From IMG/VR virus record IMGVR_UViG_3300035698_012408: a DNA stretch of 64,000 bases. The stretch is one strand, 5' to 3'. Source of the stretch: a virus. Every line of letters begins with the position of its first letter. Positions within the stretch are counted from its first letter, which is position 1. Position numbers and translations under genes: made by a program. This document shows, piece by piece, positions 671 through 56,089 of the stretch. Under the pieces are notes generated by a model. The model had not been told where the DNA came from and made no database searches. It saw only the letters and a program-made list of their open reading frames with translations.

Positions 671-684
671 GGTACTTAGAAACC
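671..684. promoter_or_regulatory. copy 1 of the 14-nt motif GGTTTCTAAGTACC (read on the minus strand)
   Basis: Exact 14-mer, 2 nt upstream of the SD of the 93..656 gene and downstream of a sigma70-like candidate promoter. Confidence 0.6.
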
Positions 685-698
685 AATTCCTACGTCTG

Positions 699-728
699 AT
701 TGTAACTGGTATTGCCCATAATAATCAA
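699..728 (-). promoter_or_regulatory. candidate sigma70-like promoter (TTGATT-18-TACAAT)
   Basis: On the minus strand the -35 is at 728..723 and the -10 at 704..699. The 14-mer follows 14 nt downstream. Confidence 0.3.
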
Positions 729-1189
729 GGGCAAGACTTCGCATAGCCTGATTGAACCATCAACTCGTTCAAGTTGACCACGTGCCCATTATCATCAGCC
801 CCGAGCAAAACTACCAGCCATCTGCCGTATTTTCCCGTCTTTTCCTTGGGCAGGCCGCCGAACCATTTGTTCGGAGCCTTCACACTTCGGATCTTCAAAT
901 GGTGGCCGATCGCCTCCACTGACTTGGGATCGTGGCGGTTCAGTGCGTATTTATGGATCAATTCCAGCAAATATGCCTTGGCCGCGAGGCCGTCCGAACG
1001 TGTTGCGAGCGGTCTGACCTCCACCGCGTAACAGTCTAGCAGTCTACCAGTCTGGAAGGCCGCCCACAACCCATATCCAAGCGCGGCATGGTAATAAACC
1101 GTGTCTCCGTCGTAGATGTCATGGATGTAACCATCCCTGACGTAGCTGTTTCGCAACTCAGCATCCATGTACTCTGGGAACTTTGGCAT
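725..1189 (-). CDS. staphylococcal (micrococcal) nuclease-like thermonuclease
   Basis: Motifs YDGDT, RLLDCYAVEVR, GKYGRWLVVLL and LNELMVQSGYAK are collinear with SNase IDGDT, RLLLVDTPE, DKYGRGLAYIY and VNEALVRQGLAK. The start is ATG 1189 or 1204. Confidence 0.6.
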   Translation of the reverse strand: MPKFPEYMDAELRNSYVRDGYIHDIYDGDTVYYHAALGYGLWAAFQTGRLLDCYAVEVRPLATRSDGLAAKAYLLELIHKYALNRHDPKSVEAIGHHLKIRSVKAPNKWFGGLPKEKTGKYGRWLVVLLGADDNGHVVNLNELMVQSGYAKSCP

Positions 1190-1206
1190 TCGATCGATCT
1201 CCATGT

Positions 1207-1239
1207 AAAAAAACCCGATCGGGTTACGGCCCGGTCGGG
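1207..1239 (-). terminator. rho-independent terminator
   Basis: The minus-strand RNA has a 10-bp stem (cccgaccggg / cccgaucggg, one mismatch) and a 6-nt loop, followed by U7. It sits downstream of the lipoprotein gene. Confidence 0.7.
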
Positions 1240-1280
1240 TTAGGGGGCCCACTGCGTAGGCATTCTGCTATTGCGTTCGA

Positions 1281-3839: not shown

Positions 3840-3880
3840 AAAAAAGGAAGAGAGGCAACCGGGCCGTTTCCGACCCGGTT
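3840..3880 (-). terminator. candidate rho-independent terminator between the two paralogs
   Basis: 7-bp stem aaccggg/cccgguu (3857-3863 / 3874-3880) and a 10-nt loop, then a pyrimidine-rich tract ending in U6 (3845..3840). Confidence 0.45.
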
Positions 3881-3925
3881 ACCACCTCTTTGTACCTTCA
3901 CTACGCTTTCACGCAGCACAAGCAC

Positions 3926-6008: not shown

Positions 6009-6038
6009 GATTCGGCCTCCCGGCGTTGGCGCCGTGTG

Positions 6039-6278
6039 CTAACCTCCACCGCTCCGGGCCTGCTGCATAGTCCCACGCACTTGAAGAGCTGCGTTTTGGG
6101 CCTCGCCAGCCTGCCGAAGTGCAGTGAGCACAGGTGCAGGGTAATGAATCTGGTGCGGATGAGGTATCCGCCCAGGAGTTGCTGTAGATAGGCACGGACA
6201 ATCGACATAAGCTAGACAACCGCTAGGCTGTTTAGCCGGAACACGTCCGAATCCGCCGCATTGTGGGCAAGCTGCCAT
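6039..6278 (-). CDS. possible small Cys-rich protein (CPQCGGFG, DnaJ-type CxxCxGxG-like)
   Basis: ATG-initiated 79-aa ORF in an otherwise 340-bp gap. There is no clear SD and coding is uncertain. Confidence 0.25.
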   Translation of the reverse strand: MAACPQCGGFGRVPAKQPSGCLAYVDCPCLSTATPGRIPHPHQIHYPAPVLTALRQAGEAQNAALQVRGTMQQARSGGG

Positions 6279-6319
6279 TTTACTGCTTTTCTGCTATTAA
6301 ACTGAATCGGTCTTCAGAA

Positions 6320-6356
6320 TTACTATTATCATGACATTTCTGCCAAGTAATGTCAA
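6320..6356 (-). promoter_or_regulatory. candidate sigma70-like promoter in an AT-rich gap (TTGACA-17-CATGAT, or GATAAT at 19 nt)
   Basis: The only strongly AT-rich stretch in this region. The -35 TTGACA is at 6356..6351 on the minus strand. Confidence 0.3.
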
Positions 6357-8073: not shown

Positions 8074-9924
8074 CTATCGAAGCCCTAAGACAGATCCTGC
8101 TACGCCTCGCATGAATCCACCCCAGATGCCAAGGTCTTGAAGTTTCGTCTGGCCGGCTGGCGTAAGCCCGCCCAATGCCCCAAGCACTCCACCAGCTATC
8201 CGCGCGGTGGCGAGATCCAGGCCGGCGTTAGCCAGCCCGGAGATAAAGTGCGTGGGTCGTAATATTGGAGCTCCACCATACATCTGCTGGACTCCAGTAA
8301 CAAGCCCTGACGCCGCAGCCGCAATGTACGGCGGCGTGTTGGGCGTCCCCATGCCGTACGGGTTCGCAGTTGAACTCTGCCGCCCGTTATGCACATCATT
8401 CCAAATCGCTCGATTGAACGAGTCTACCGGTACCTGTTTCAACGACACCCCTGCCGACCCACCATAGCCGGAGTAGGCCACCTTGCAAAATCCTTCAGCT
8501 GCTCGCATGAACAGCTCAGACGGCTGAGGCAACGCTGCCTTCGTCGCCTGCCAATCGCTCCCTTTGTAGAAATTATCCCGAAGCGTCAACTCATTCGGCG
8601 ACATCGGGACTTTCGCGTGTGGCGTCATCATCGTACCCATGAAACCCATCGGCTTCCCAGCCTCTCGGGCCATCCCAGCGTTTGCAAACGCTGGCGGGAC
8701 GCTGGACAACGCACCCATCCCTCCACCTAACATGGCCAACGTCCGACGAAGTCTGTTACGCCGAACGTACTTCTCGGGCAGCAGGTGCTCCAGCAGCGTT
8801 CCGCCGAGGTACCCTCCGCCCGCCCCGAGCAAGCCACCGACTATCGAATTGGTCAATGGCGAAGGCCCGCCTGTGGCGGCCCCAGCCCACTCATACGGCT
8901 TGTTCAAGATGCTCAATGCACCAGCCGCCGATTTGATCAACACCCAGTCATCCTGCCCGTGTGGGCCGTACTCCGACTCGGTTCTGACGCTATCCACGCC
9001 ACTGATGGCCTTCAACGCGTTAGCCCACTTCTGATGGACGTTGTCGCTGTCGCCATCCGACAAGATAGCCCAGAGCTGCTTTGTCTCGGGATTCCACCAC
9101 ACGTCACCATAACCGGGGTCAGATGATGCGGGCAGATACCTGATGACCTTCTTGACCGTCTTCTGGACCGTGGCCGCCTCTTTGTAGCGAGTAGCCACGA
9201 GCGCCGGGACAGCCATCCAGGCCTCCAGTTCTCCCTGCTTTTCGATACGTTGGATGGTCTCGTCTTGCACTTTCGACCATGCCTTCCTGGCGTCTACGCC
9301 GCGATCGTCAATGTAAATATCGGCAATCAGCTTATCGCTGGTGCCATCCGGCTGATCCGGGTTCTCGTTCACATAGTCCCACGGAATGTCGTGTTCGTCA
9401 AGATAGGTCTTCGTGAGTTCGTCATCTCCCCGCACCGTGTTAATGATAACACGCCAGCCGCGACCTTTGAACTCATCCAGAGCTTTTTTAGCCCCTGGAC
9501 GTGGCTTAGGGATGTCTTCGGGATCAAACTTATCATACATCTCTGCAATGGTCCCGTCCAGATCTACTGCCACGGTCGGGACCTTTTCACCGGCTTCTGC
9601 CTGCTTTATTGTATCATCCAGGCCAGCACTTCCATCCCATAGGCCGCGGAAGGCCGCCTGCCCAGCAATCCGCTGCGGAAGTCCTCCATCTGTAGATCGT
9701 AGGCCCGCCAGTGCTTTGCTACTGCTCTGCGTTGTTGCTGTGCGACCCACAACGCTCGACGCCTTTCTGCGCCCCGCGTTGCCTGCCGTTCTCGCTTCTG
9801 CCGTTTTTGCTGGCGTCGCGAGCAGCGTTCCGATTTGCCTTTGGACTTTCCCCGTTTGGTGACCCGTTCCTTTGGCTCGTCGCATCTCATGCGTCGTCTG
9901 TCTCCTATGTGTTGTGGCCATCAT
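8074..9924 (-). CDS. HAD-superfamily phosphatase domain (NT5C/deoxyribonucleotidase-like) fused to a large Gly-rich membrane-associated C-terminal region
   Basis: HAD motif I VAVDLDGTI, motif II IINTVR, motif IV IYIDDRG. The C-terminus has glycine-zipper-like helices (GGLLGAGGGYLGG, GGVLGALGG). Start ATG 9924 after GGGAG. Confidence 0.55.
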   Translation of the reverse strand: MMATTHRRQTTHEMRRAKGTGHQTGKVQRQIGTLLATPAKTAEARTAGNAGRRKASSVVGRTATTQSSSKALAGLRSTDGGLPQRIAGQAAFRGLWDGSAGLDDTIKQAEAGEKVPTVAVDLDGTIAEMYDKFDPEDIPKPRPGAKKALDEFKGRGWRVIINTVRGDDELTKTYLDEHDIPWDYVNENPDQPDGTSDKLIADIYIDDRGVDARKAWSKVQDETIQRIEKQGELEAWMAVPALVATRYKEAATVQKTVKKVIRYLPASSDPGYGDVWWNPETKQLWAILSDGDSDNVHQKWANALKAISGVDSVRTESEYGPHGQDDWVLIKSAAGALSILNKPYEWAGAATGGPSPLTNSIVGGLLGAGGGYLGGTLLEHLLPEKYVRRNRLRRTLAMLGGGMGALSSVPPAFANAGMAREAGKPMGFMGTMMTPHAKVPMSPNELTLRDNFYKGSDWQATKAALPQPSELFMRAAEGFCKVAYSGYGGSAGVSLKQVPVDSFNRAIWNDVHNGRQSSTANPYGMGTPNTPPYIAAAASGLVTGVQQMYGGAPILRPTHFISGLANAGLDLATARIAGGVLGALGGLTPAGQTKLQDLGIWGGFMRGVAGSVLGLR

Positions 9925-9943
9925 AAATCTCCCGTCCCTGGAG

Positions 9944-10672
9944 TTATTCGTCGAAATAGCACTCAAGGTCGGTGCCGGTAAACTCTTGCTTCAGTTCCGT
10001 GTAATTCTCAATCTGCGATGATAAGGATCTAATCCCTACCTTCACTGTATTGGTTGTAGGCGCCGGGCACAATGCCGGATCTACATCAAGATGCTCGTAG
10101 ATGCGACGCATATACCGCAGCGGGGCTGCACACAGCGACTCGTACGTCAAAACGAAAGAATCCGTATAAGCTAGGCCCGTGGTGGACTGGAGCTGACGAA
10201 TGGCGTCAATATCCTGACGCAACGCAGCAGAGTCCACAACCAGCCGCTGATTCCGAATACGCTCAGCTTTACGCCGCCACCCCGCCTGATGCCGTCGAAT
10301 CTGCCATTTCCTGTGATGATCACCCAATTGATGAGACACGAACCGCCGCAGCAGGTTCCACCGCTGAAGCACGATAACCTTCGTGTCTTGAGGTAACAGC
10401 TTAAACAGATCATTGTACTCACGTGGGTTAGTCCAATGAGGCTGCACCCCTTGCCAGCCGTGAAACATGTGCGCGACCGCCCCGGAGCCCTGTGTCGCCA
10501 ACGTCCGCTGAATGCGGGCACTCGTACTCATTCGCGGTCGACCCGCTTTCGCTCCAGGATTAAACACCTCGCCATCACACGCCAAGTCGGGATGAGAGTT
10601 GATCAAGCCGCGGAGCATGTGCGTGCCGCACCGTGGAAAGGTCAAGACTAAAAATCCCTTTGGTTTTGCCAT
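9944..10672 (-). CDS. sulfotransferase-family protein (paralog 1 of 4)
   Basis: 5'-PSB-like FPRCGTHMLRGLINSHP and 3'-PB-like RWNLLRRFVSHQL. C-terminus YFDE. Confidence 0.6.
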   Translation of the reverse strand: MAKPKGFLVLTFPRCGTHMLRGLINSHPDLACDGEVFNPGAKAGRPRMSTSARIQRTLATQGSGAVAHMFHGWQGVQPHWTNPREYNDLFKLLPQDTKVIVLQRWNLLRRFVSHQLGDHHRKWQIRRHQAGWRRKAERIRNQRLVVDSAALRQDIDAIRQLQSTTGLAYTDSFVLTYESLCAAPLRYMRRIYEHLDVDPALCPAPTTNTVKVGIRSLSSQIENYTELKQEFTGTDLECYFDE

Positions 10673-10688
10673 CTATTCAGTTCTCCGA

Positions 10689-11417
10689 CTATTCATTGAA
10701 ATAACACGCGATGTCAGTGTCTGCAAAACGCCTTTTCAATGACTCGTAATTGATTATCATGTCACGTAACGACCTACCCATATGCAGCGGTAGCGTCTCG
10801 GCTTCAATATTCTCGCAAGCATCCGGGTCCGCCCCGAGGTGCTCGTAAATGCGACGCATGTGAAACTCGGTGTGTAGACACAGCTGCTCATACGACACCC
10901 TGTAAGTATTTAGAAACTGGCAACCCCGCGTGGCTAGTATCACCCGAGCGGTGTGTATATCGCCTCGCAACCGCGCGGGGTCTAGCATCACACGTGCATC
11001 TCTTGCTTGCGTTACTAGAACCTGTGCATCACGCTTACTTCGCGTGACGTTCCATACGCTCTTCCTCGCCAACCGCCCCGACGCATACCGTCGCAATAGA
11101 TTCCACCGCTGAATGCACACGACTTTCGTGTCCAATGGTACTTGCTTGAACAAGTCGGCAAACCTAGTTCGTCGCCCTTTCGGCCAGCCGGTACAAGCAT
11201 GAGCTATCATACCAGTAAGCGGCCCCTGCCAATATTCATTTAGGCGAGCCTGCACGCCCCCTGATTCCTTGAACCTGCTAGGATCAAATACCTCATCATG
11301 ACACGTAATGGCTGGGTGTGCATTGAGCAGCGACCGTAAAAAATGACTGCCACTTCTCGGATACGAGAGTAACAGAAATCCTTGCTTACCTTCAGGGAAC
11401 ACCAAACGATCACTCAT
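10689..11417 (-). CDS. sulfotransferase-family protein (paralog 2 of 4)
   Basis: YPRSGSHFLRSLLNAHP and RWNLLRRYASGRL. The start ATG 11417 overlaps the upstream stop as ATGAGTGA. Confidence 0.6.
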   Translation of the reverse strand: MSDRLVFPEGKQGFLLLSYPRSGSHFLRSLLNAHPAITCHDEVFDPSRFKESGGVQARLNEYWQGPLTGMIAHACTGWPKGRRTRFADLFKQVPLDTKVVCIQRWNLLRRYASGRLARKSVWNVTRSKRDAQVLVTQARDARVMLDPARLRGDIHTARVILATRGCQFLNTYRVSYEQLCLHTEFHMRRIYEHLGADPDACENIEAETLPLHMGRSLRDMIINYESLKRRFADTDIACYFNE

Positions 11418-12159
11418 CAAAATAACACGCAAGGTCAGTGCCCGCAAAATGCTTCTTCACCTTTCCATAATTGGTCACTATCTCCCGGATCGGCCGATCC
11501 GCGTTAAGCACCATCGTCTTGGCCTTCACGTGCTTGCACGCATCCGGGTCAGCCCCGAGGTGCTCGTAAATCCGCCGAATATGTTCTTCAGTATTAGCTC
11601 GCAGCTGCTCGTACGTTACCAGATGAGTATTCACGAATTGCAGCCCGAGCGTGGCCAATATTGCTCTGGTGACATCTACATCCAGTCGCAACTTCACCAC
11701 GTCCACACGGATTGTCTGGGTTCTCGCAGCCTCCGCACGGGCTTCAGCGTTGTCCGAACCAGTCATCACCGTCCACTCGTTACTCGCCTGCGCCAGTAAA
11801 TGCGATACGTGCCGTCGAAACAGGTTCCACCGCTGGATGCACACGATCTTCGTGTCCAGCGGCAGCGTCGGGAATAATCCGGCGAAACCACTCTTTGCCC
11901 GCCACACGCAGTCACGCTCCCCACGCCAACCAATATACGCGTGGGCAATCATGCCCGTGAGCGGCCCTTTCCAATACTGGATCAGTCGCTGCTCTACATG
12001 CCCCGGTTCCGGGTAAAGTTCACGGTTAAATATCTCGCCGTGACACTTGATGTCCGGGTGCTCGTTGAGAAGCGATCGCAGGAAATGACTACCACTTCTC
12101 GGATACGAAAGTAGCAGAAATCCTTGCTTGTCTTTGGGAAATGCTAACCGATTACTCAT
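11410..12159 (-). CDS. sulfotransferase-family protein (paralog 3 of 4)
   Basis: YPRSGSHFLRSLLNEHP and RWNLFRRHVSHLL. The start overlaps the upstream stop as ATGAGTAA. Confidence 0.6.
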   Translation of the reverse strand: MSNRLAFPKDKQGFLLLSYPRSGSHFLRSLLNEHPDIKCHGEIFNRELYPEPGHVEQRLIQYWKGPLTGMIAHAYIGWRGERDCVWRAKSGFAGLFPTLPLDTKIVCIQRWNLFRRHVSHLLAQASNEWTVMTGSDNAEARAEAARTQTIRVDVVKLRLDVDVTRAILATLGLQFVNTHLVTYEQLRANTEEHIRRIYEHLGADPDACKHVKAKTMVLNADRPIREIVTNYGKVKKHFAGTDLACYFDE

Positions 12160-12901
12160 CGAAATATGGCTCCATGTCTGTACCCATGCACTGGGCTTTC
12201 AGCTCTTCGTAATTTGTTACCTGTTGACTAATCGGCACCCGGGCAAACCGCACTGACGTGGTCGTAGGATTTAACTGCTTACCAGGATCTACGCCAAGGA
12301 ACTTGTAAATATCCCACATGACCCGCTTGGGCGTGCTGCAAAGCTGCTCATAGGTAATGTGTATAGCATTTTGAAACCGTAGCCCGATCGTGGACTGTGC
12401 GGCTCTGGCCATGTCCACGCTGGTACGCAGAGCACCAAGCGGAATATTTACCGTAGTCCTGTCGTACTCATCCCGCCGAAACTTCCCTGGTGCGTTAGTC
12501 CTTGCCTCCCACGCCCTGCACTTCAATGCCATGCGGTCAGACACGTAGCGTCGCAACAGATTCCAGCGATGCAGCACCACGCAAACCTGCTCAGGCCTAA
12601 AGCTAACCAGCGGCTCGGCCTTCAACATATCGGCCACGCCCGTCTCTATCCACGCCGTCTTGTCAAGCGTGTACTGGCACGTCATGTGATGCGTGTAACC
12701 AACGTGCTTCCCAGCACTGTAATGCTCCAAGACGTTCGCCACCGTGTGAGGCTGTTTCACCTTTTTTGTGTAATGCGACAGCACATTGAACAGCTCGCCG
12801 TGACAGTGCAAGTCTGGATGCGAGTTAATGTAATCGCACATCAGATGCGTCCCAGAACGTGGGAGCGACAACAGCACAAATCCTCGTTTAGACCCTGCCA
12901 T
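12152..12901 (-). CDS. sulfotransferase-family protein (paralog 4 of 4, most divergent)
   Basis: LPRSGTHLMCDYINSHP and RWNLLRRYVSDRM. ATG 12901 overlaps the GT stop (TAATG). Confidence 0.55.
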   Translation of the reverse strand: MAGSKRGFVLLSLPRSGTHLMCDYINSHPDLHCHGELFNVLSHYTKKVKQPHTVANVLEHYSAGKHVGYTHHMTCQYTLDKTAWIETGVADMLKAEPLVSFRPEQVCVVLHRWNLLRRYVSDRMALKCRAWEARTNAPGKFRRDEYDRTTVNIPLGALRTSVDMARAAQSTIGLRFQNAIHITYEQLCSTPKRVMWDIYKFLGVDPGKQLNPTTTSVRFARVPISQQVTNYEELKAQCMGTDMEPYFDE

Positions 12902-13833
12902 TACAAATACTTCTCCAATAACTGCGCCCACTTCTTATGGAACGTCGCCAACCCGAATCGTTCACGTGCGATTTCGACATTTGGCGGTGAGCCTGCCAAT
13001 GCCTTCTTAACAAATCCTGCCAATACGTTCGCGGAAACTACTGCTCCGCGTTTCGGTGGAATCCTTGTCACCATGTCAGCGAACTCTTTGCAGCTGGCAC
13101 GTGCGGAAACCACCACCCGCTTACCCATGCACGCAGCTTCGAGCACACAGTATGGGAATGCTTCATTATGTGACGGCACGCACAACACATCAGTTGCACG
13201 ATAGACGTCGCCCGGCGTATCAGTGTACCCTTGCAACGTCGTCCACCGATTATTCAACCGCCGGGAGCCTGCGACACCCTGACCAGACAGCAGTGCCGGC
13301 TCCTGCAACTTCCGGGCAGCCTTGGCCACCGCAACGGCATTCTTCAGCCCCGAGTTTCTACCAACAAACCCCAACAGGAACTGCTCCCCGTACTTCTCGC
13401 GTAGGTCCTCGCCGACGCGGTCCAACCGCTCACAATCAACACCGTTCGTGATCGTCAACGGCTCTCGGCCGAGAGTCTTCCTCATGTTCCCCGCTACGGG
13501 TGACGAAACAGCGACCAACACGTCGGCGGCCTTCATAGCATCCACCCAGCCAGCGTGCCACTTGTTACGGTGATGCCGCACGCAGATCTGCACGCCGCCA
13601 ACCCGTTTGGTCACGCCGCCACTGGAATCGATGATCACCTTCGCGTCAGTGATAACACCTTGCTGCCACTCCAGCCCTGCCGCTGTAAGCCGCGCAAGTG
13701 CCGCGGGTAGAATCATCGGACCCTGAACACGGACACGCATACCGATAGACTGCAAGTAAGGGGCTAGGCTTAACACCCATGTGAGTCCCCCGCCGCAGTC
13801 CAATTTCTTGAATGCAAATGCTATATCGATCAC
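12901..13833 (-). CDS. GT-B glycosyltransferase (GT4/GT1-like), paralog 1
   Basis: C-terminal motif HNEAFPYCVLEAACMGKRVVVS (E-x7-E type). The N-terminus is homologous to the next gene. GTG 13833 overlaps the upstream TGA (GTGA). Confidence 0.6.
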   Translation of the reverse strand: MIDIAFAFKKLDCGGGLTWVLSLAPYLQSIGMRVRVQGPMILPAALARLTAAGLEWQQGVITDAKVIIDSSGGVTKRVGGVQICVRHHRNKWHAGWVDAMKAADVLVAVSSPVAGNMRKTLGREPLTITNGVDCERLDRVGEDLREKYGEQFLLGFVGRNSGLKNAVAVAKAARKLQEPALLSGQGVAGSRRLNNRWTTLQGYTDTPGDVYRATDVLCVPSHNEAFPYCVLEAACMGKRVVVSARASCKEFADMVTRIPPKRGAVVSANVLAGFVKKALAGSPPNVEIARERFGLATFHKKWAQLLEKYL

Positions 13834-14768
13834 AGATACTTCTCCAATAACTGCATCCACTTTTTGTAGAATAATGGCAGCCCGAAACGCTCTCGGGCTA
13901 CCGCAACGTCGGGAGGCGGGCCTGCCAATGCCTTCTTCACATGTGCTACTATTGCCTCTGCCGTCGGAGTAGTCCTGGCATGCTGCACTTCGATTCGCGT
14001 AACCATATCAGCGTACTCTTCGCAATGTGCGCGAGCTGATACCACCACACGTTTACCGAGACACAGAGCTTCTACCACCGAGAATGGGAAGGCTTCGTGC
14101 TTGGATGGCACGCACATGACGTCAGCGGCTCGATAGACATCGCCTATCGTGGTCGTGTAACCAATCAACTGCGTGTAGTCGTTCTTCAGTCGACTATCCC
14201 CAGCAATGTTACCGCCCGCAAAGATAGCATGGCGATTGAATAGCTTGGCCGCCTTGGCTATCTGTGCTGCGTTCTTCAACTGAGAGTTACGACCGACGAA
14301 CCCCATCAGAAACTCACGACCGAACTTTTTACGCAGGTCCACACCAACCTTGTCCAGACGGTCAATGTCCACGCCGTTGTTGATGACCACGGGCATTCGC
14401 CCAGTGTATCGACGGGTGTTATGAGCCACCGGGATAGACACGGCGACGATTTCATCCGCTTTCTTCGTAGCCTTCACCCAACCACTCAGCCACGTCCGCC
14501 GGCTATGCCGCACGGCGATGACAGGGCCATCATGCTCCCGTGCTACCTTGCAGCCACTGGAGTCGATCACGATGCGGGTATCCTTGATGACACCGATCTC
14601 GAACGGGATGCCCGCTGCTGTCAACGTGGCTATCGCCGTTGGAAACAGCTTCGGTCCCTGGACACGGACGGTCACGCCCTGTGACTGAAGATAAGAGGCG
14701 AGCGAGATTACCCAGGTAAGCCCACCGCCATTATTTAATCCGCGGAACGCGAACGTGATGTCGGTCAT
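13830..14768 (-). CDS. GT-B glycosyltransferase (GT4/GT1-like), paralog 2
   Basis: KHEAFPFSVVEALCLGKRVVVS. It ends LLEKYL like its paralog and has an ATGA overlap with the upstream gene. Confidence 0.6.
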   Translation of the reverse strand: MTDITFAFRGLNNGGGLTWVISLASYLQSQGVTVRVQGPKLFPTAIATLTAAGIPFEIGVIKDTRIVIDSSGCKVAREHDGPVIAVRHSRRTWLSGWVKATKKADEIVAVSIPVAHNTRRYTGRMPVVINNGVDIDRLDKVGVDLRKKFGREFLMGFVGRNSQLKNAAQIAKAAKLFNRHAIFAGGNIAGDSRLKNDYTQLIGYTTTIGDVYRAADVMCVPSKHEAFPFSVVEALCLGKRVVVSARAHCEEYADMVTRIEVQHARTTPTAEAIVAHVKKALAGPPPDVAVARERFGLPLFYKKWMQLLEKYL

Positions 14769-15319
14769 GCCTTCTCCAGATAGAAGATCGTTTCCTTCCG
14801 ATACGTATCCTCGTGGTGGATATGCCCTTTGAGCATCTCACGCAGATCCGCTTCGCATAACCGAATGTTTGGAATGATGTGGCCTTCCCAGTTATCGTCC
14901 CTGACGTTCGTGTCCGTCTCGGCCATTCGCAAGAACAACACCAACGTCATCCGTTTCGTGTAGGACTTGAGAGCGTTTTCGAGAATCTTCCGCCAGTTGA
15001 CGTTATGTTCCAACACGTGACGCATGTTGAGGCAGGGCACGCGGGAGGTGTAGACTTCGAGATCCTTCAGGTAATCACAGAATCCCGCAGTGCCATCAAC
15101 GCCGATATATTCCGGCCGATCGGCTGGGGGCACCATGTTGTGCAGCACCTTCTCGAAGTCGCGGCAACCGCAGCCCCAGTCTTCAATCATGCCGTTGCCT
15201 TCCAGCCACGCGACAGATCGCCGATAGGAAGTTTTGCGTCCGTAGTCCCGCCGATGCGCTCCGTCTTTATAACACGGCGACCACTTACCGGCTCCACTTT
15301 CTTCTCTTGACTTCCCCAC
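14765..15319 (-). CDS. class I SAM-dependent methyltransferase
   Basis: Motif I IEDWGCGCRDF, motif II YIGVDG, then MRHVLEHN. GTG start 7 nt after AAGGAG. Confidence 0.55.
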   Translation of the reverse strand: MGKSREESGAGKWSPCYKDGAHRRDYGRKTSYRRSVAWLEGNGMIEDWGCGCRDFEKVLHNMVPPADRPEYIGVDGTAGFCDYLKDLEVYTSRVPCLNMRHVLEHNVNWRKILENALKSYTKRMTLVLFLRMAETDTNVRDDNWEGHIIPNIRLCEADLREMLKGHIHHEDTYRKETIFYLEKA

Positions 15320-42109: not shown

Positions 42110-43153
42110 ATGTCAACACACGCAGATCAGCCATTCGCTGATGCTCCCAGTCCCGAAGCGTACGCTATCGCCCCGCCAGAGCCTTTCGCTCAACTCATGC
42201 CAGGACTGATAGTCATGGAGGGGGACATCCGCCTCGGGCTCGACCACCTGGGTGATGGTTGGAATGAAGTCACCCAAGGGTACGTCGGTATCACCGTGCC
42301 TGATGCTCAGGTGGCTTATGCTCGCTTGATCATGCCCGAGAACTTCTCTCGACTCGTCAATGGGACCTTCGTTCATCCCCGTGATCAGCTCTGGCGGAGT
42401 GGTGAGCCTCGCTGGGTGCCGGTACCGGCTGAGTGGATCGCTCGTGGCATGACCGTTGATGGTATCCGGGAGGAACTCGCGGAAGAAGCCCAGCTCTACA
42501 TCTGCCGTCCTGACTTCGATGCTCCTGATCACCGAGTGTTGCCCATTCCGCCCCATCACCGAGCCCTTGCAGCTGCCGAACCGATCCGATATGGCGATAA
42601 AGCCATCCACGCAGGGCTCGATGACTGGCAAACTGTCGCTGTTGGGCTCCGTGGGCAGGAATGTGGTGAACCGTGCGAACCGAACAAGTTCGTCCGCTAC
42701 TGCCGGCCTATCCACCCCCAAGCCCAGAACTGGTATGTTGACCTTCGACCCGATCGAGGTGACGATACCGGCCCCGGATCAGCCGTCACACCCTTCGCAA
42801 CGCTCGAAGGTGGCCAAAATGCGATCGAAAAGGCCTCCCAAGACGCCAATATCACCGTCTATGGCGTGATTTGGGAGGTTCGAGGCACCCCGCTGGTCGC
42901 TTATGACCTCCCTGAGCCTCAAAAACAGGGTTATCAGGCCCCAATACTCGAATGTGACCCTGCTGAAGAGGCCGATCGAGCTCGGCTGAGCGCCCTGGCA
43001 CCCAAAATACCGATCGAACCGACCGGTGCGGCCGAAAAGACCGCTGCTACCCCTAAATTGCAAAAAGAACACATCAAGGCGATGATCCAGAGCCTCGAAC
43101 AAGCACTTCTGGTAGCTCATACCATGCTAGCGGAGATTGAGAGCGGAGAATGA
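42110..43153 (+). CDS. hypothetical protein (first of the only two plus-strand genes)
   Basis: ATG after AAGGAAGAG. 347 aa, no family recognised. Confidence 0.5.
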   Translation: MSTHADQPFADAPSPEAYAIAPPEPFAQLMPGLIVMEGDIRLGLDHLGDGWNEVTQGYVGITVPDAQVAYARLIMPENFSRLVNGTFVHPRDQLWRSGEPRWVPVPAEWIARGMTVDGIREELAEEAQLYICRPDFDAPDHRVLPIPPHHRALAAAEPIRYGDKAIHAGLDDWQTVAVGLRGQECGEPCEPNKFVRYCRPIHPQAQNWYVDLRPDRGDDTGPGSAVTPFATLEGGQNAIEKASQDANITVYGVIWEVRGTPLVAYDLPEPQKQGYQAPILECDPAEEADRARLSALAPKIPIEPTGAAEKTAATPKLQKEHIKAMIQSLEQALLVAHTMLAEIESGE

Positions 43154-43563
43154 CCATGCGTGACCGAATTATCGACCTAGATGGTGCCGATGACAAGCCT
43201 ACGCGGGCTGAGCGGAGCTACACCGTCTATTGCGAGTGCGAAAACTGCGGAGAGCTCGAATATATCGAGATCGAACGCGGTATTCTCATCACCAACGCCG
43301 TCTGCCCCTTCTGTGACTGCATGTCGCTCATCCGAGCGGCTGAACCGGGCAGTCTCGAAGAGTTCGAGGACCTCGAAGACGACCCATTGGACACCGGGGT
43401 GGACTTTCAGACGATTGTGGACTCCCTGGAGCTCCAAAAAGCGAGGGAATCACAAGAAGGCATGCCTCACATGCCGATCAGCCCGTTCGATCGCTCGGTA
43501 GCTGAGTTGGCACGGCAGGTACGTGAGGAACAACGACACGGGAGCAGGCAAGACGCTGGCTGA
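43150..43563 (+). CDS. zinc-ribbon protein with an acidic C-terminal half
   Basis: ATGA coupling to the upstream gene. CECENCG...CPFCDC. Confidence 0.5.
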   Translation: MTMRDRIIDLDGADDKPTRAERSYTVYCECENCGELEYIEIERGILITNAVCPFCDCMSLIRAAEPGSLEEFEDLEDDPLDTGVDFQTIVDSLELQKARESQEGMPHMPISPFDRSVAELARQVREEQRHGSRQDAG

Positions 43564-43573: not shown

Positions 43574-43587
43574 GGTACTTAGAAACC
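43574..43587. promoter_or_regulatory. copy 5 of the 14-nt motif
   Basis: Exact copy, 10 nt after the plus-strand stop, overlapping the 5' arm of the terminator hairpin by 4 nt. Confidence 0.6.
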
Positions 43588-43626
43588 ACCTGGATCGGAC
43601 TTTCCGGCCCAGGTGGTTCTTTTTTT
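43584..43626 (+). terminator. rho-independent terminator at the convergent junction (possibly bidirectional)
   Basis: Perfect 10-bp stem aaccacctgg/ccaggtggtt and a 15-nt loop, then cTTTTTTT. An A-run lies on the other side for the minus strand. Confidence 0.75.
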
Positions 43627-45828: not shown

Positions 45829-45865
45829 TGGATCGATCCTCCATTTCCAATCCCCCCTTGACTAA

Positions 45866-45914
45866 TCAAACAAAAAGCAATCGGCTGACACCAATCCCTT
45901 GGCAGTCAGCCGAT
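45866..45914 (-). terminator. rho-independent terminator
   Basis: Perfect 11-bp stem aatcggctgac/gtcagccgatt with an inner ccaa/ttgg extension, followed on the minus strand by gcUUUUUgUUUg. Confidence 0.8.
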
Positions 45915-45989
45915 TACGCCACTCATTGGCAAAGAGCCGGTAGCATCATGCTACCTTCGTCAGTCCCTTGACGGAGTCCTCCCAGCCAG

Positions 45990-50202: not shown

Positions 50203-50220
50203 TACATTCTCCCGCTACAC

Positions 50221-50258
50221 GAAAAAAGGCGGCCGGGCGCTAAGCCTCAGCCGCCTTT
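50221..50258 (-). terminator. rho-independent terminator after the tubulin-like gene
   Basis: 9-bp stem aaaggcggc/gccgccuuu followed by U6 on the minus strand. Confidence 0.8.
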
Positions 50259-50291
50259 CCCTGGCGTCCGATTCATGTTTGATTATCTGAA

Positions 50292-51455
50292 TTATACACC
50301 AAGGAAGTCTGCGACGCTATCCCGGGTCTCCCCGGCTTTCACCGCAAGCTCCTGAAGACGTTCCAACGGCATCGGCAAGTTCCCCACCATTGCGAGAATC
50401 TTGATGCCGTCGCCCCCGCTGGCCGGGTAGACGCCTGGGAACACTGCGGAATCGGCCGGAGTAAGGATACGATTCATCATCTCGGTGCCGTGGTCCAGCA
50501 CGCCAACCGTGATAGGCTCCGGCCCGGACCAAGCTGCGCCACTCACGACGTAGATGAGCCCGGCGACGTTGCCCTGGGTGAGATCGATCGTAGCCAACAC
50601 ATTCCGGCGAAGCTGATCACGGATGGGCGTACTGACGTCGCTCGGCTCCGCCCACTTCGTGATATTGCAAGCTGCAAAGGCCACAATTCCACTGTCCATG
50701 ATCTTGCTGAAATCGGCCGGATCGAATGTCGTACCACCCACATCCTCGCTCTCCGTGCCGGCGAGCCGGTTGAAGGTATGGAGGATCTGAGCCGTACTCT
50801 GGTTAGATGCCGGTTTCTCTTGTGGTACTGGCACCTTGGCACCATAGAGCGTTTTGAACTTCTCGTTGTCGATGAAGATCACAGGGCTCACCTTGAGCTT
50901 GTTCAGCACCTTCGCCGAGTGGAGAATGTTCTTTGCGCTACGCTGGCCTTCGGAGTCCTTTGGCATGGCCATGATGACACCAACACGCGGAGGTCGCTTC
51001 TTCTCCTGCATGTAGCGCTTGGCTACCTGGACCACCTTAGCGAACGCCCCGGCACCCGTACCGCCCGCCCCAGAGAGGCAGACAAACACGTAATCCGGGT
51101 CCTCGCCCCAGCAGCGCTGGAAGAGATCATAGAGATCCTCGTCCTTATCCGCTACCAGTCGAGCCGCCGTGTGCGGATCTTTACCTGCACCCCGCGCCTG
51201 CCCCACATCGAGCTTGGCGGTGTCCGGGAACGTCTTCAGCTCGGCCAAGTCGGCAATCGCCGTGTTGACCGCACAGACTCGGGTGTACCCGATTTCCTGA
51301 AACGTCTTGGCTATCCGCCCGCCAGCTTGTCCGACACCCACAAACGCGAATTTGTAAGCTACCGGATGATCAAACTTGTCGGCGATAGTCATCCCCGTAG
51401 GGCTCTCAGGAACCTCTGGTAGGTCCCCAATGTTGAGATGGATGTCATCACTCAT
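50292..51455 (-). CDS. tubulin/FtsZ-superfamily GTPase, TubZ/PhuZ-like
   Basis: T1 loop FVGVGQAGGRIA. T4 loop SGAGGTGAG matches the tubulin signature [SAG]GGTG[SA]G. AVNTA, GAGKDP and VIFIDNE are collinear with the TubZ segments AVNFA, GAARTP and VIVNDN. Confidence 0.75.
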   Translation of the reverse strand: MSDDIHLNIGDLPEVPESPTGMTIADKFDHPVAYKFAFVGVGQAGGRIAKTFQEIGYTRVCAVNTAIADLAELKTFPDTAKLDVGQARGAGKDPHTAARLVADKDEDLYDLFQRCWGEDPDYVFVCLSGAGGTGAGAFAKVVQVAKRYMQEKKRPPRVGVIMAMPKDSEGQRSAKNILHSAKVLNKLKVSPVIFIDNEKFKTLYGAKVPVPQEKPASNQSTAQILHTFNRLAGTESEDVGGTTFDPADFSKIMDSGIVAFAACNITKWAEPSDVSTPIRDQLRRNVLATIDLTQGNVAGLIYVVSGAAWSGPEPITVGVLDHGTEMMNRILTPADSAVFPGVYPASGGDGIKILAMVGNLPMPLERLQELAVKAGETRDSVADFLGV

Positions 51456-52032: not shown

Positions 52033-53085
52033 TTAAGCAAATATCCGTCGAATATTAGACCCAAAGGTCTCACGACGGAGGTGAAGGCCCTTCGACACGC
52101 TTTGCTGCAACGAATACAGCCGCTCCGTGTCTAAGGCGTCATTCCGAAATACATCATCCATGAGAGCATAATCAGGAGCAGCACAAGGCAACCCTATATT
52201 ATTCTTCTCTTCGGACGTGTCAACCAGAATCCCGTGAACACCGTTCACAAACATCTCGGACATCGGCTGACAGTTAAATGTCACAACAGGTGTCCCCATT
52301 GTCACCGATAACAGCCCTACCATACAAGTGCTTTCCCAGTGTGTTGGCCAGAAAGTTACATCATGCTGACGGAAGAGCAGCGGCCGGGACGCTGGATGCA
52401 CCCCCTTATATAATGAAAGTCGACCCGGGAATTGCTTCTTCAATTGCTTCAGTAAGCGCTTCCCAGGCGACGCAATTGTTGACGAATTATAAACCACGCT
52501 GAGCGAGGCTTTCGGACATCCCTCTAAGGCTCGTCCGGCCACTTCCAGGGCTGTCAATTCTACACGCCTCGCCACGCCGTCGTATATCGGCATGAGTATC
52601 TTTGGTGCGGTCGGCTGGTAGTCCTGCGGCTTCTTGCAGATTGGCAAACCCACGTCCCAAGGAACCACAACCACGTTATCCAGTTTCCATTGATAGCCGA
52701 GAAACTGTGCCGCCGCCATCGTTGGCGCGATCACCATGTCAGCTGCCTGTAAGGCTGCCCGGTCAGCTACCCGCGACTCCATGCTCAGCTCATGCCACAG
52801 CACAAAAATACATGTGCGACGCTGCTGTTTCTTCGCATACTTGACTTGCTGCGGGTGCGGGATACTCGTCCACAAGACGATGTCGCACTGTTGCAGCCAC
52901 TTCGTAAATTTAAGGTCACGGCTTCGCCGAACCTGTGCATCCCACTTGTTCGACACGCGACGCGGTGTGTCAGTCATTGTTAATATCGACACGTCATGCC
53001 CATGTGCGACAGCCGAATCCGCAATGCGTAATCCTGCATAAGTCGCTTCATGAAAACAGTAACGGGTACAGATGCCTAGATTCAC
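52033..53085 (-). CDS. GT-B glycosyltransferase (GT1/GT4-like)
   Basis: ESTCMVGLLSVTMGTPVVTFNCQPMSEMFVNGVHGILVD matches the E..lEA.a.G.PVv....E.v..g..G pattern. GTG start. Confidence 0.55.
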   Translation of the reverse strand: MNLGICTRYCFHEATYAGLRIADSAVAHGHDVSILTMTDTPRRVSNKWDAQVRRSRDLKFTKWLQQCDIVLWTSIPHPQQVKYAKKQQRRTCIFVLWHELSMESRVADRAALQAADMVIAPTMAAAQFLGYQWKLDNVVVVPWDVGLPICKKPQDYQPTAPKILMPIYDGVARRVELTALEVAGRALEGCPKASLSVVYNSSTIASPGKRLLKQLKKQFPGRLSLYKGVHPASRPLLFRQHDVTFWPTHWESTCMVGLLSVTMGTPVVTFNCQPMSEMFVNGVHGILVDTSEEKNNIGLPCAAPDYALMDDVFRNDALDTERLYSLQQSVSKGLHLRRETFGSNIRRIFA

Positions 53086-53088
53086 AGC

Positions 53089-53925
53089 TCAACCCTTGAA
53101 AGCCTTCACACTATCTGCCATAGCGTACGGGGGATTGACATAAAAACCAATGCGACCCTTGGAGCCCCGATGCCACGTGCGTCGAGGACGTACCAATGAA
53201 ACCACACCAAAATGCTGACACACAAACGGCACCAATAACCCTGCCCAGAGTCCGTTCCGCGATGCTGCTTTCTTCAATTGATCATCAAACTTCTGTTTTG
53301 TATTATGCTTGCGCCTGAAGAAATTATCAAGCGTAGTAAACCCTTCCCGTGTTACGTACAAACACTGCGCGGTGATCCCGCCCTCGCGCACACGCTGCTT
53401 ATCGCAGTTCTTTATTTTCTTGTTCAGATGCAGTCCCGAGAGGATTGCCAGCGGTTTAGCGAATAATAACTCATCCGCCGCCACCTGCGTCAAGCGTTCG
53501 TACCAATCCTCTTTGAATATCACATCATCTTGTAGCAAGATGACCCCAGGAGCATCAGGATATTTGTCGAACATGCGACAGACAGCTTGGCAGGACGCAT
53601 TGACCACGCCAGCCGGCTTCTTCCCTAGCCGCACGACACCGACACGTCCACGCAATCCTACAGGTGGCTTCGCACTTTTGTTGATTACGTCAAGCCCCAA
53701 CTTCTTCCACATGGCATGTTGTGGCCACTTGTGTTCCGACCCTGTCCCTCGGGCGGTAGTGTAGTACGTTCGGGCCTCCGTGGTGTCGCTGGCATCATCA
53801 AACACAGTCAGCGGCACAGCTTCAGGAAGCCGTGTCGCCGACAATGATCGTAAGGTCACGTCAAGGTAATGAATACGGTTACGTGATATGATGCCAATCG
53901 GCACCAGTTTACCAACTTCTGCCAA
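53089..53925 (-). CDS. GT-A glycosyltransferase (GT2-like)
   Basis: IGIISRNRIHYLDVTLRSL....PLTVFDDASD and ILLQDDVIF. TTG start 7 nt after AGGAG. Confidence 0.5.
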   Translation of the reverse strand: MAEVGKLVPIGIISRNRIHYLDVTLRSLSATRLPEAVPLTVFDDASDTTEARTYYTTARGTGSEHKWPQHAMWKKLGLDVINKSAKPPVGLRGRVGVVRLGKKPAGVVNASCQAVCRMFDKYPDAPGVILLQDDVIFKEDWYERLTQVAADELLFAKPLAILSGLHLNKKIKNCDKQRVREGGITAQCLYVTREGFTTLDNFFRRKHNTKQKFDDQLKKAASRNGLWAGLLVPFVCQHFGVVSLVRPRRTWHRGSKGRIGFYVNPPYAMADSVKAFKG

Positions 53926-53935
53926 TTCTCTGCTC

Positions 53936-56053
53936 CTAGTTTAAGTCGATAAACCTGCTCTGCTTACCGAATTCCCGTTGAATGTCCGCTTCCTTCCTTC
54001 CGTGATACCACGCCATGAGCTGCTGCTCCGCGGAGGAGACGTCTCTTGGCGTGTTCTCCTCCAGCACTCGCAACACGGGATTGTCGACCGCCGCGGCCTG
54101 CTTCCCATACTGCTGCTGCAACACCATCTCTCGCCCTTGCAGTGACGCGTCTCGTTTGATCTCGTCCATCTGGGACTTGACCAACGCATGAATCGTCGGA
54201 TCTTCCTGCTTGAGCTGAATGAGGAAGGAATCCTTCTGTGACTCTGGCATGGCTATGGCCTGCTGGGCCAACGTGGACGCCGTGGTATTCATCTCCTCGA
54301 CAGACTGTGGCTTGTTAGGCAGCAATGGCTGCCCGGCCATGAACGCATACACGGCACCCTGCGGGCCTTGCGGCTGACCCATAGCGCCCATCGGCGGAGC
54401 AGGCTGCCCACCCGGGGCAGGTGCGGCTGGAGCGCCACCGCCCGGCATCGCGCCGGGCATTCCCTGCATGGCTGGCATCTGCCCACCCGCGGCTGCCGGA
54501 TCTCCACCAGGAGGTGGTTGAGGCAGTGCCATCTCATCCATGACGGCTGACTGCTCCATCTCTTCCTGCATATCCTGCGTGGCCTCGGCCGTGATCCGTT
54601 CTTCTTCCAGCTTGCGTCGCTCTTCTTCGGCGTACTCGATGCCGACGCTGGCGAGCCCGGTGGTTCGACTGACCTGTCCACCCATCATGAGCTGGAGCTT
54701 GGCCATCTGACGATTCAAGTCGTCCGCATGGGTGACCCGCTGCAATCGAGCGTTCACAGGTTCCCACGACATGACTTGACTGATCTTATCAACGAGCTTG
54801 TTGAGGAAGCGATTCAGATTATGTACGAGGTGACTCCAGTTGGCCTCAAACAGCCGCAGCGCGGCTGGAGCCGACTGAACGCTCAATGAGCCCTTGTAGA
54901 GCTCCACAGGGATACCGATGGACGTCAGCAGCGTATCCATGCCCAATTCCAGCAAGTCCTTCGGAGCGAGCTGTGTAGCGTCACCACCGAGGGCCTGATA
55001 ATCGATCGGGAACGGCAAGATGTTCCAGCGAGCTGGATCTCGTCGCCGCTGCTTGAGCATGTTATTCACACGCCCTGTGAACGACCCGAGATTGATGCTT
55101 AGGACTGGGTCATTGACCTCGCCACCCTGGCCTGGGCGTGGCTGCGGAGTGATCACGCGGAACGGGATCACGTAATCCAAGGCGATCGCTTCATTGTAGC
55201 GATGAAGCACCTGGACGTACCACGCCTGTCGGAAGTTGGCCAGCACACGCGAAATACCCCAGCCGCGATTTCTCACGCCGGCCAAGGCTTGTTCTTTCAT
55301 GTGGTAGACAACGTCGTTGTCAAACAGCAAGGCCTGATTATTCTGCACGGCCTCGACGATCTCCCAACTGGCCCGCTCCAGATGGAACAGATGACCCTTG
55401 CGCACCAGATTCTGGTAATCCTCGGGGATTCGCCAGATGAACGACGCGTCGTCCGTGTGCGGGTCCCACAGCACGTCTATCTCGTGTGGGTTCCATCGTT
55501 TGATCTTGATCTGGCCATTCTCGCCAGATCGACGATCGATATGCTCCCAGGCCCCTGTGTAATCACACTCGGGACATTTCGCGTTGAACTGATACCCAGT
55601 CCACGAGAAATTGAACATGTCCGTGTTGTAAACTCGCTTCAGCGGTAACTCCAGCCCGCAGTCGGGGCAGGCAAGATACCTGCGGAATGGGACCAGCAGA
55701 CTGGTGAAGCTGTTACCGTATACCAGATAGTCCAGAGCGACGGTGGCCAGCACGTCCTTGATACCCAGGGTATCGTTGAGGAAATCCTCGTACTTCTTCT
55801 TCTCCTCGCGGCCGATCCGTTCATCTCCGTCACCCGCTGACACGATCTCAATGTCGGTCAGGAAGTATGAGATGATCCGAGCAAGCGCAGAACGATATGG
55901 CCCATTGGCCATAGCGATATACTCACACCAGCGTAATGCGTCCCTGATAGTCGTGGGCATGGCCGTGGAGGCCACATCACAAAACGGGTCAGGAAAACGA
56001 TCGTCAGCGTGCGTATTACTCCCTTGTGTGGGAGAACTAAATAGGTTGGCCAT
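53936..56053 (-). CDS. portal (head-tail connector) protein, podovirus T7-type-like, with a zinc-ribbon insertion
   Basis: The segments DYLVYGNSFTSLLVPF and RGWGISRVLANFRQAWYVQVLHRYNEAIALDYVIPFRVITPQ parallel T7 gp8 QLVVAGNVLLYLP and ESYGRSYIEEYLGDLRSLENLQEAIVK...GLVNP. The C-terminus is Gly/Met/Pro/Ala/Gln-rich. The assignment is from memory, not a search. Confidence 0.55.
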   Translation of the reverse strand: MANLFSSPTQGSNTHADDRFPDPFCDVASTAMPTTIRDALRWCEYIAMANGPYRSALARIISYFLTDIEIVSAGDGDERIGREEKKKYEDFLNDTLGIKDVLATVALDYLVYGNSFTSLLVPFRRYLACPDCGLELPLKRVYNTDMFNFSWTGYQFNAKCPECDYTGAWEHIDRRSGENGQIKIKRWNPHEIDVLWDPHTDDASFIWRIPEDYQNLVRKGHLFHLERASWEIVEAVQNNQALLFDNDVVYHMKEQALAGVRNRGWGISRVLANFRQAWYVQVLHRYNEAIALDYVIPFRVITPQPRPGQGGEVNDPVLSINLGSFTGRVNNMLKQRRRDPARWNILPFPIDYQALGGDATQLAPKDLLELGMDTLLTSIGIPVELYKGSLSVQSAPAALRLFEANWSHLVHNLNRFLNKLVDKISQVMSWEPVNARLQRVTHADDLNRQMAKLQLMMGGQVSRTTGLASVGIEYAEEERRKLEEERITAEATQDMQEEMEQSAVMDEMALPQPPPGGDPAAAGGQMPAMQGMPGAMPGGGAPAAPAPGGQPAPPMGAMGQPQGPQGAVYAFMAGQPLLPNKPQSVEEMNTTASTLAQQAIAMPESQKDSFLIQLKQEDPTIHALVKSQMDEIKRDASLQGREMVLQQQYGKQAAAVDNPVLRVLEENTPRDVSSAEQQLMAWYHGRKEADIQREFGKQSRFIDLN

Positions 56054-56075
56054 CCCTAGCTCCTGGATATATTTT

Positions 56076-56089
56076 GGTACTTAGGAACC
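56076..56089. promoter_or_regulatory. copy 6 of the 14-nt motif (one mismatch: GGTTCCTAAGTACC on the minus strand)
   Basis: 22 nt upstream of the portal ATG. Its internal TAA is the stop codon of the upstream gene. Confidence 0.55.

Follow-up and report, generated by a model that had tools for sequence, protein, structure and literature searches.

The stretch of DNA analysed here is a 64-kb piece of a viral genome (IMG/VR record IMGVR_UViG_3300035698_012408), in the following called the window, and the element in question is a 14-nucleotide (nt) word, GGTTTCTAAGTACC, which is present in five exact copies and in one further copy with a single mismatch (GGTTCCTAAGTACC). These six copies had been listed in a first-pass annotation made from the sequence alone, and a motif scan found all of them again in the same places and at the same distances from the starts of minus-strand genes. 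The sites are exact, specific to the genome that carries them, confined to gene junctions and random in orientation, and three junctions hold a site across relatives. A copy is called forward when GGTTTCTAAKTACC and the genes around it read in the same direction, and reverse when it is turned the other way.

By chance about 5e-4 copies of such a word are expected in 64 kb. The window contains no copy with two mismatches, and the lone match with three, at 10905, is at the level of chance (with up to three mismatches allowed there are seven matches, against 2.1 +/- 1.4 in shuffled sequences). A census of repeated 10-, 12- and 14-mers gave the word as the sole dispersed repeat, and the remaining repeated 12- to 14-mers belong to tandem arrays within two large genes. 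Genes were called with a codon-usage model trained on the window itself, by which 91% of it is coding. The annotation had proposed to look for a bias of the copies towards gene starts, and a positional bias is indeed present: all six copies lie outside the called genes, where 8% of the positions qualify, which gives p ~3e-7 (0.08^6), and in relatives nearly all copies are junctional. The partial dyad that was pointed out earlier exists as GGT...TA...ACC, which makes 8 of the 14 positions symmetric and is the only dyad symmetry of the word; the inner bases are not symmetric, every copy keeps them exactly, and there are no two equivalent inverted half-sites. The motif is AU-rich in a genome with 57% GC, and whichever way it is turned it supplies one or two reading frames with stop codons. 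Alone it folds to a 3-bp stem at most and forms no stable local structure, and an Rfam search of the window gave no match.

Copy 1 (671-684, minus strand, exact, forward) lies between a sigma70-like promoter and the Shine-Dalgarno (SD) sequence of a conserved gene for a protein of 187 amino acids (aa) at 93-656 on the minus strand; it is 2 nt from AGGAG and 14 nt from the GTG start, and the -10 hexamer of the promoter (TTGATT-18-TACAAT, 699-728, minus strand) ends 14 nt upstream of it. Copy 2 (16209-16222, minus strand, exact, forward) is found 52 nt upstream of the gene 15374-16156, and it is read through in frame 3, stop-free, by an upstream open reading frame (ORF) with a 2H phosphoesterase domain. 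This frame, 15330-16865 on the minus strand, has 511 codons with a 2H-SAK phosphoesterase domain at residues 87-197; it shows a good coding signal to about 16223 and then continues stop-free through copy 2, whose TAA is one base out of frame, and it overlaps the gene 15374-16156 in a different frame. An indel from sequencing, a frameshift or decay of the gene end could account for the read-through. Copy 3 (32251-32264, plus strand, exact) is reverse to the minus-strand genes and lies 45-48 nt upstream of 31777-32202/32205, with the hexamers TTGAGC-17-TATGAT (32269-32297, minus strand) ending 4 nt before it. Copy 4 (39238-39251, plus strand, exact, reverse) sits between a terminator-like hairpin with a T-run and the SD sequence GAGGA, which directly abuts the motif, 12 nt from the gene 38929-39225. 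The hairpin, with its T-rich tail (39252-39295, minus strand), lies 3' of a gene for a 903-aa protein and ends at copy 4; its fold is no better than those of shuffled sequences, and a weak promoter-like match, TTAAGA-16-TATTTT, overlaps it.

Copy 5 (43574-43587, minus strand, exact, forward to the main gene direction) occupies the only convergent junction of the window, where the two genes on the plus strand (42110-43563) are backed by the codon model. The last 4 nt of the copy belong to the stem (AACCACCTGG/CCAGGTGGTT) of an intrinsic terminator at 43584-43626, with a run of seven T on the plus strand and a run of seven A upstream. That this terminator is bidirectional, as had been proposed, is borne out by folding, which gives a strong hairpin on both strands (free energies of -32.3 and -30.5 kcal/mol, z -3.85 and -4.0). 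Copy 6 (56076-56089, minus strand, forward), the one with the mismatch, is located 22 nt upstream of the ATG of the portal gene (53936-56053, minus strand, 705 aa), and its internal TAA is, as the annotation had read it, the stop codon of the upstream gene, which encodes 58 aa at 56081-56257. The two sigma70-like pairs that the annotation placed at copies 1 and 3 are both present; each has 9 of 12 matches, a level that is not enriched window-wide. The operator-like position claimed for both copies stands for site 1, where the promoter is conserved in relatives; the hexamers at site 3 are a chance-level match. Hexamers resembling a -10 element end 4-5 nt before the motif at sites 3 and 4.

To which phage does this DNA belong? 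No DNA similarity was found between the window and 50,697 phage records in either the near or the distant search mode. Most of its proteins have no Pfam or PHROG match, and the genes flanking the motif gave no informative match in Pfam or PHROGs. The portal was recognised by tblastn to gp204 of Salmonella phage Arash, an annotated portal protein with 27% identity, and also to three Vibrio phages. More than 1000 homologues with 55-85% identity to it were found in metagenomes, and as their contigs top out at 200-229 kb, the window should represent about one third of the genome of a widespread, uncultivated family of large phages of about 200 kb. One copy was binned with an Aquaspirillum metagenome-assembled genome, which hints at a host among the Betaproteobacteria.

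Other genomes carry the motif in spellings of their own. In a 210-kb IMG/VR contig it reads GGTGCTTAATTACC, with GC before each of the 14 exact copies, and in a 192-kb IMG/VR contig it reads GGTTTCTAATTACC, in 11 distinct exact copies with a G in front; in the closest portal relatives (the loci L095, L362, L363 and L369) the word is GGTTCCTAATTACC, in low copy. A 59-kb contig, which by eye resembles the tail/baseplate region of a large phage, contains three copies in the spelling of the window; it has no protein in common with the window, and its relationship to it is unproven. All versions fit the skeleton GGTNNNTANNNACC, and within the loci examined this skeleton gives only the sites of the window and of the three closest lineages, plus two isolated matches in other relatives. 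Each of the 14-mers has about 35-95 unrelated single matches elsewhere in IMG/VR, and 3-14 copies per contig against such singletons are far from chance. Exact matches to the spelling of the window in IMG/VR were, except for the 59-kb contig, mostly chance singletons unrelated to it, and so were the ones in metagenome contigs among the matches listed. Near-variants, with one or two mismatches, hardly occur: the window and 94 kb of the 192-kb contig have one each, and 110 kb of the 210-kb contig have none. The copies share no similarity in their flanks, and all copies within a genome have nevertheless changed in concert at positions 4-6 and 10. Such concerted change without flank homology points to a reader that changed along with its sites. 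The pattern is repeated in independent assemblies from different samples.

The copy number varies between these genomes. In the window and in the 210-kb and 192-kb contigs, identical copies of the motif have accumulated in both orientations. The low-copy genomes L095 and L369 have one or two sites in the 20-22 kb examined, and their own sites differ by 1-2 bases from one another; the whole 155-kb contig of L095 has one exact GGTTCCTAATTACC. An intragenic GGTTCCTAATTACC occurs in L362 (5907-5920) and L363 (5889-5902), where it encodes RFLIT within NRFLITP in the orthologue of the window gene 59600-60439; the window has NRFLRTP there, with unrelated codons, and the word is identical in L362 and L363 despite differing synonymous sites beside it. 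A clade of portal relatives with 50% GC had no such motif in the 10-20 kb examined of each, and Arash, the nearest cultured phage by portal, had no comparable dispersed motif in 91 kb; the portal is the only homologous part. Arash does have an element of about 160 bp with the 14-mer CAAACGTTGTAACC, inverted, at its borders, in two copies about 110 kb apart (L371 26628-26785 and L365 about 30350-30510), which are unrelated to the motif studied here. Searches for loci anchored on the 903-aa protein and on a 382-aa protein, made for sites 3 and 4, found no relatives.

The placement and orientation of the motif were surveyed at about 37 sites in the four multi-copy genomes (the window and the 210-, 192- and 59-kb contigs). 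Outside called genes are all six copies of the window, 13 of 14 in the 210-kb contig, 10 of 11 in the 192-kb contig and two of three in the 59-kb contig. At about 12 sites the stop codon of the upstream gene is inside the motif or overlaps it, and at eight the next start codon follows within 0-5 nt, which leaves no room for an SD sequence; at the remaining sites the SD sequence comes 0-11 nt after the motif. At most sites the motif is found 0-25 nt upstream of an SD sequence or a start. The downstream genes are mixed and include DNA polymerase A, an SbcD-like nuclease, the portal, the RNA polymerase operon, a glycosyltransferase and many small ORFans. Forward and reverse copies number 4 and 2 in the window, 10 and 4 in the 210-kb contig, 3 and 7-8 in the 192-kb contig and 0 and 3 in the 59-kb contig, in total about 17 to 17, and both strands are used in all four genomes. 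Two of the junctions are orthologous between the 210-kb and 192-kb genomes, that of the SbcD-like gene and that of a gene for 323/354 aa (blastp 1e-45 and 1e-39). At both of them the two genomes have the motif in opposite orientations, one forward and one reverse, and in each genome the copy at the SbcD-like gene directly adjoins the start codon. Nothing else speaks as strongly against a directional promoter or terminator, or against an element that acts in RNA, as this opposite orientation at orthologous junctions.

Three positions have been kept over longer evolutionary distances. The first is that of copy 1, between the promoter and the SD sequence upstream of the gene for the 187-aa protein, and it is occupied in the window, in L366 (70% protein identity, CGTTTCTAAGTACC), in L370 (59%, GGTTCCTATTCACC) and in the 210-kb contig (44%, GGTGCTTAATTACC). 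The motif begins 5-14 nt past the -10 hexamer here (TTGAYT-18-TACAAT/TAACTT). The -35 hexamer TTGAYT together with AT(G/T)ATGGGC is kept in the window, L370 and L367, and both hexamers are kept in L366; L367 and L368, which are more distant, have kept the promoter or its -35 hexamer and lack the motif at this position. The second position is upstream of the portal gene, in the window (GGTTCCTAAGTACC), in L095, L362, L363 and L369 (all GGTTCCTAATTACC) and in the 210-kb contig (GGTGCTTAATTACC), where the first nine bases of the motif form the end, Gly-Ser-stop or Gly-Ala-stop, of a gene for 56-58 aa. The third is the convergent junction beside a terminator hairpin in the window, in L095 (GGTTCCTATTTACC) and in L369 (GGTTTCTATTTACC), and a site at this place serves no downstream gene.

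The gene for the 187-aa protein is the first of an operon that continues, in four relatives, into genes of a multisubunit RNA polymerase, and read from these relatives the polymerase genes would fall just beyond the left edge of the window. The operon lies at 3368-11060 in L366, 7607-15177 in L370, 12843-20552 in L367 and 12944-19738 in L368. Its large subunit (1483-2264 aa) has RNA_pol_Rpb2_6 and Rpb1_2 domains; it is 1483-1644 aa long, and 2264 aa in L368, where it holds an intein with a LAGLIDADG domain. The second subunit has 633-650 aa and an Rpb1_5 domain. This phage family thus encodes a fused beta/beta'-like multisubunit RNA polymerase of its own. Arash encodes large proteins annotated as RNA polymerase beta/beta' near its portal, and RNA polymerase beta/beta' proteins are abundant in, and packaged into, its virions (PMC10585845). 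The 187-aa protein was considered as a reader of the motif and set aside: its AlphaFold2 model (pLDDT 79, with a confident N-terminal domain) has no fold match in the PDB. The relatives also carry many selfish nucleases, for example inteins in terminase and RNA polymerase genes. In the 210-kb contig (IMGVR_UViG_3300037067_026010) a 1447-aa protein at 196547-200890 on the plus strand, opposite to most genes, looks by eye like a large terminase split by intein/homing-endonuclease segments.

Other parts of the window are less directly connected to the motif. Clear terminators on the gene strand, made of a hairpin and a T-run and without the 14-mer, are found at 1212-1225, 3854-3883, 27385-27497, 45829-45989, 50203-50291 and 57511-57546, and two of the motif-less terminators are trailed by an identical TTTTTTTAGC tail; other promoter types must restart transcription after them. 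The stretch 6009-6352 has 344 nt without a convincing gene (one 79-codon ORF with low GC at third codon positions) and is AT-rich at its upstream end, and the best sigma70-like match of the window, TTGACA-17-(TG)CATGAT at 6356-6328, overlaps it. A tubulin gene at 50292-51455 (minus strand) is closest to the plasmid tubulins TubZ/RepX and to FtsZ, and it adjoins the portal block in L363 and L095 with 71-74% identity. A nucleus-forming phage of the PhuZ type was rejected on this affinity and since no PhuZ entry came up in the PDB sequence search; no chimallin was present among the results of the portal search. Further recognisable genes are those for thymidylate kinase, trypsin-like and papain-like proteases, a methyltransferase, a sulfotransferase and several glycosyltransferases. 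A block at 8074-15319 combines a phosphoheptose-isomerase-like domain, a sulfotransferase and two GT4 glycosyltransferases, with additional glycosyltransferases at 23944-24951 and 52033-53085, and this sugar-modifying block suggests modification of glycans or DNA by the phage. In-frame tandem repeats occur in a gene for 1548 aa (19026-19289, a 30-nt unit 4.9 times plus 21- and 18-nt units) and in the gene for 903 aa (39964-40945, units of 66, 48 and 38 nt). Neither protein has a detectable homologue in Pfam, PHROGs or the PDB, and the idea that the 1548-aa protein is a polymerase was dropped for lack of a match in these three.

How should the motif be understood? A word that is self-contained, asymmetric, tied to junctions and indifferent to orientation fits best with a site on duplex DNA that is bound by a phage protein. 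Our preferred reading, which we hold tentatively, is that the motif is an operator or roadblock site for a phage-encoded DNA-binding protein that coevolves with it, and that it works independently of its orientation. The reader would recognise the asymmetric word of 14-16 bp in either orientation and act by occupancy. Copies that overlap the start region of host-type promoters would then serve as operators, as at site 1 ahead of the RNA polymerase operon and possibly at sites 3 and 4, and copies that fill a stop-to-start gap or stand at a convergent junction would block read-through transcription or insulate against it. We infer that the reader is a protein of this kind rather than a nuclease or a polymerase, and its binding would probably repress or insulate transcription; by sequence alone, an operator, a nick site and a recombination site look the same. 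A palindromic operator for a dimer, in the style of KorA/KorB, LexA or GntR, was rejected since only GGT..TA..ACC is symmetric, and a sigma70 -10 element, a promoter of the extracytoplasmic function (ECF) type, IHF sites, parS, dif and DasR-like boxes were rejected by eye for misfits in spacing or symmetry.

Several observations weigh against the operator reading. None of the 50 proteins of the window, about a third of the genome, has a Pfam match to a helix-turn-helix protein, a repressor, an integrase or ParB, and the conserved 187-aa protein beside site 1 is without a known fold. There is no sign of a temperate lifestyle in the window (no integrase match), and a classical immunity repressor is thus not indicated. 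The three ancient sites are all forward, so that a directional role is conceivable there, and the stoperators, the best-known analogue, depend on orientation, whereas the motif does not. Promoter-like sequences in the operator position, which favour the reading, are enriched only modestly, with a match at 4 of 34 sites against 9 of 257 control gene starts. Finally, at least seven borders of transcription units in the window that are bounded by terminators lack the motif, and it is therefore not a general signal for boundaries or for the start of transcription units.

The forward orientation of the ancient sites is also what could be expected if the motif were a promoter, or a core element of one, for the multisubunit RNA polymerase of the phage, with transcription starting directly behind it and very short or leaderless 5' untranslated regions. 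The polymerase operon that adjoins the window in this family raises the prior for such a role, the distant relative Arash packages such a polymerase in its virions (PMC10585845), and the exactness and the genome-specific variants match the conserved, AT-rich and phage-specific early promoters of jumbo phages (PMC7598289). The motif is moreover the only over-represented intergenic word in the window, and its distance to the SD sequence or start at most sites would suit a promoter. Against this, about half of the copies oppose the genes and face no ORFs on the other strand that they could serve, orthologous junctions carry it in opposite orientations in two genomes, and the conserved copy at the convergent junction could only yield antisense RNA; the genes downstream are as different as PolA, the SbcD-like nuclease, the portal and the polymerase operon, and many units delimited by terminators have no motif. 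A site read on double-stranded DNA, and not a directional promoter, is what the first-pass annotation had already favoured, and the even ratio of orientations, the two flips and the convergent site uphold this. We regard a promoter as rather unlikely. That the motif acts in RNA, as a processing site, as an enhancer of translational coupling or initiation, or by pairing of forward and reverse copies in polycistronic transcripts, is in our view quite improbable. Many copies are certainly transcribed, as those with a stop codon inside and a start 0-5 nt further on without an SD sequence, and the word stands out as AU-rich in this GC-rich genome and brings stop codons in both orientations; but the two orientations are different RNAs and still occupy equivalent positions, even at orthologous junctions, the stem is only 3 bp long and has no Rfam match in the window, an AU-rich enhancer would not require 14-16 exact bases, and the copy at the convergent junction has no cistron to serve.

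Indifference to orientation comes naturally to any site that is read on the duplex, and the motif could also be a DNA-level site for a phage nickase, a recombinase or a factor of replication or packaging, which is junctional because it is too costly in coding sequence. Exact copies with almost no near-variants are likewise seen in the nick motifs of tf, phiKMV and T5 (PMC3517423), the copies are more evenly spaced than random (the coefficient of variation of the spacing is 0.42 with p 0.07 in the window and 0.56 with p 0.024 in the 210-kb contig), the convergent-junction copy requires no link to gene expression here, and the relatives are rich in selfish nucleases. The known nick motifs are, however, distributed on a single strand (PMC3517423), whereas the copies described here are on both. 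The same junctions hold a site at 30-65% protein identity, including the two where it is flipped, which speaks for selection tied to the neighbours; at site 1 the motif stays between a conserved promoter and an SD sequence, and the Pfam scan of the proteins of the window identified no nickase or recombinase gene. Such a site is a serious alternative, and still an unlikely one. Far less credible is that the motif has no function and results from chance, an assembly artefact or the remnant of a tiny mobile or recombination-spread sequence. The absence of shared flanks and the uneven copy number, one exact GGTTCCTAATTACC in the 155 kb of L095 against 14 copies in the 210-kb contig, could be taken that way, but the chance expectation is minute, independent assemblies from different samples agree, the position is kept at three junctions and all copies of a genome have changed together. 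To our knowledge there is also no way for a 14-bp unit without flanks to move.

A further idea, which goes beyond an operator and which we consider improbable but worth stating, is that the motif belongs to an undescribed system of large phages that encode an RNA polymerase, in which a word usable in either orientation partitions a one-directional genome into expression or topological domains. It would work as a protein roadblock or an insulator, or the non-canonical polymerase could make use of it from both orientations, and word and reader would evolve jointly into a private code for each phage lineage. We found no described motif of this kind in jumbo phages in the literature. The family is widespread in metagenomes yet uncultivated and almost wholly unannotated, and a motif that is lineage-specific, exact and positionally conserved gives a first handle on its organisation of gene expression or DNA handling. 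If the roadblock is true, an asymmetric roadblock independent of orientation would be a new regulatory design; should the motif turn out to be a promoter or a nick site, one could start from it to study the biochemistry of a new nickase or of a new phage RNA polymerase with fused beta/beta' subunits. As markers, the exact 14-16-mers can in addition serve to bin and classify metagenomic fragments of these genomes.

The closest known parallel is found in the mycobacteriophages of Cluster A, where repressors of the L5 type bind more than 20 asymmetric 13-mers in promoters and short intergenic gaps (PMC9283540). Like the motif, these stoperators are asymmetric words of 13-14 bp that are nearly exact, dispersed and present in a phage-specific variant (PMC9283540), and they too are located in promoter regions and in tiny gaps that overlap stop or start codons. 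If the reader of the motif is a regulator, its variants would define specificity groups, just as stoperator variants define immunity groups. The stoperators are, however, strongly co-oriented with transcription and inactive when reversed, whereas the orientation of the motif is random, and they are about 5-10 times denser than the motif, which occurs once per 10-15 kb. The phages that carry them are temperate siphoviruses with genomes of about 50 kb and a known repressor, and here the genome has about 200 kb and its own RNA polymerase. A second parallel is the C1 repressor of P1, which binds 22 dispersed asymmetric operators of 17 bp (PMC8546580). C1 thereby controls many separate operons of a large genome, as the reader of the motif would, and a monomer-type reader of an asymmetric word is implied. 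The operators of P1, a temperate plasmid prophage, are more degenerate and placed at promoters, and they are not known to lie between coupled cistrons or at convergent junctions. No homologue of C1 was detected among the proteins of the window.

Jumbo phages that encode RNA polymerases, such as phiKZ and AR9, have conserved, AT-rich, phage-specific early-promoter motifs of roughly 10 nt (PMC7598289). These were recognised by sequence analysis and are, as here, short motifs upstream of operons in phages with a non-canonical multisubunit RNA polymerase, but they are directional and follow their genes, whereas half of the copies of our motif are reversed, orthologous copies are flipped and one stands at a convergent junction. 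The nick motifs of T5, phiKMV and tf are exact words with 4-14 copies per genome on one strand, for which coevolution with a nickase has been proposed and whose function is unknown (PMC3517423). They have not been reported to be tied to gene junctions, and the motif described here is junctional and present on both strands. In mycobacteriophages of Cluster K, the start-associated sequences (SAS) are conserved words of 13 bp a few bases upstream of many gene starts; they include the ribosome-binding site and have a single orientation. Our motif, unlike these, is found either way round, and often the ATG comes immediately after it, without an SD sequence.

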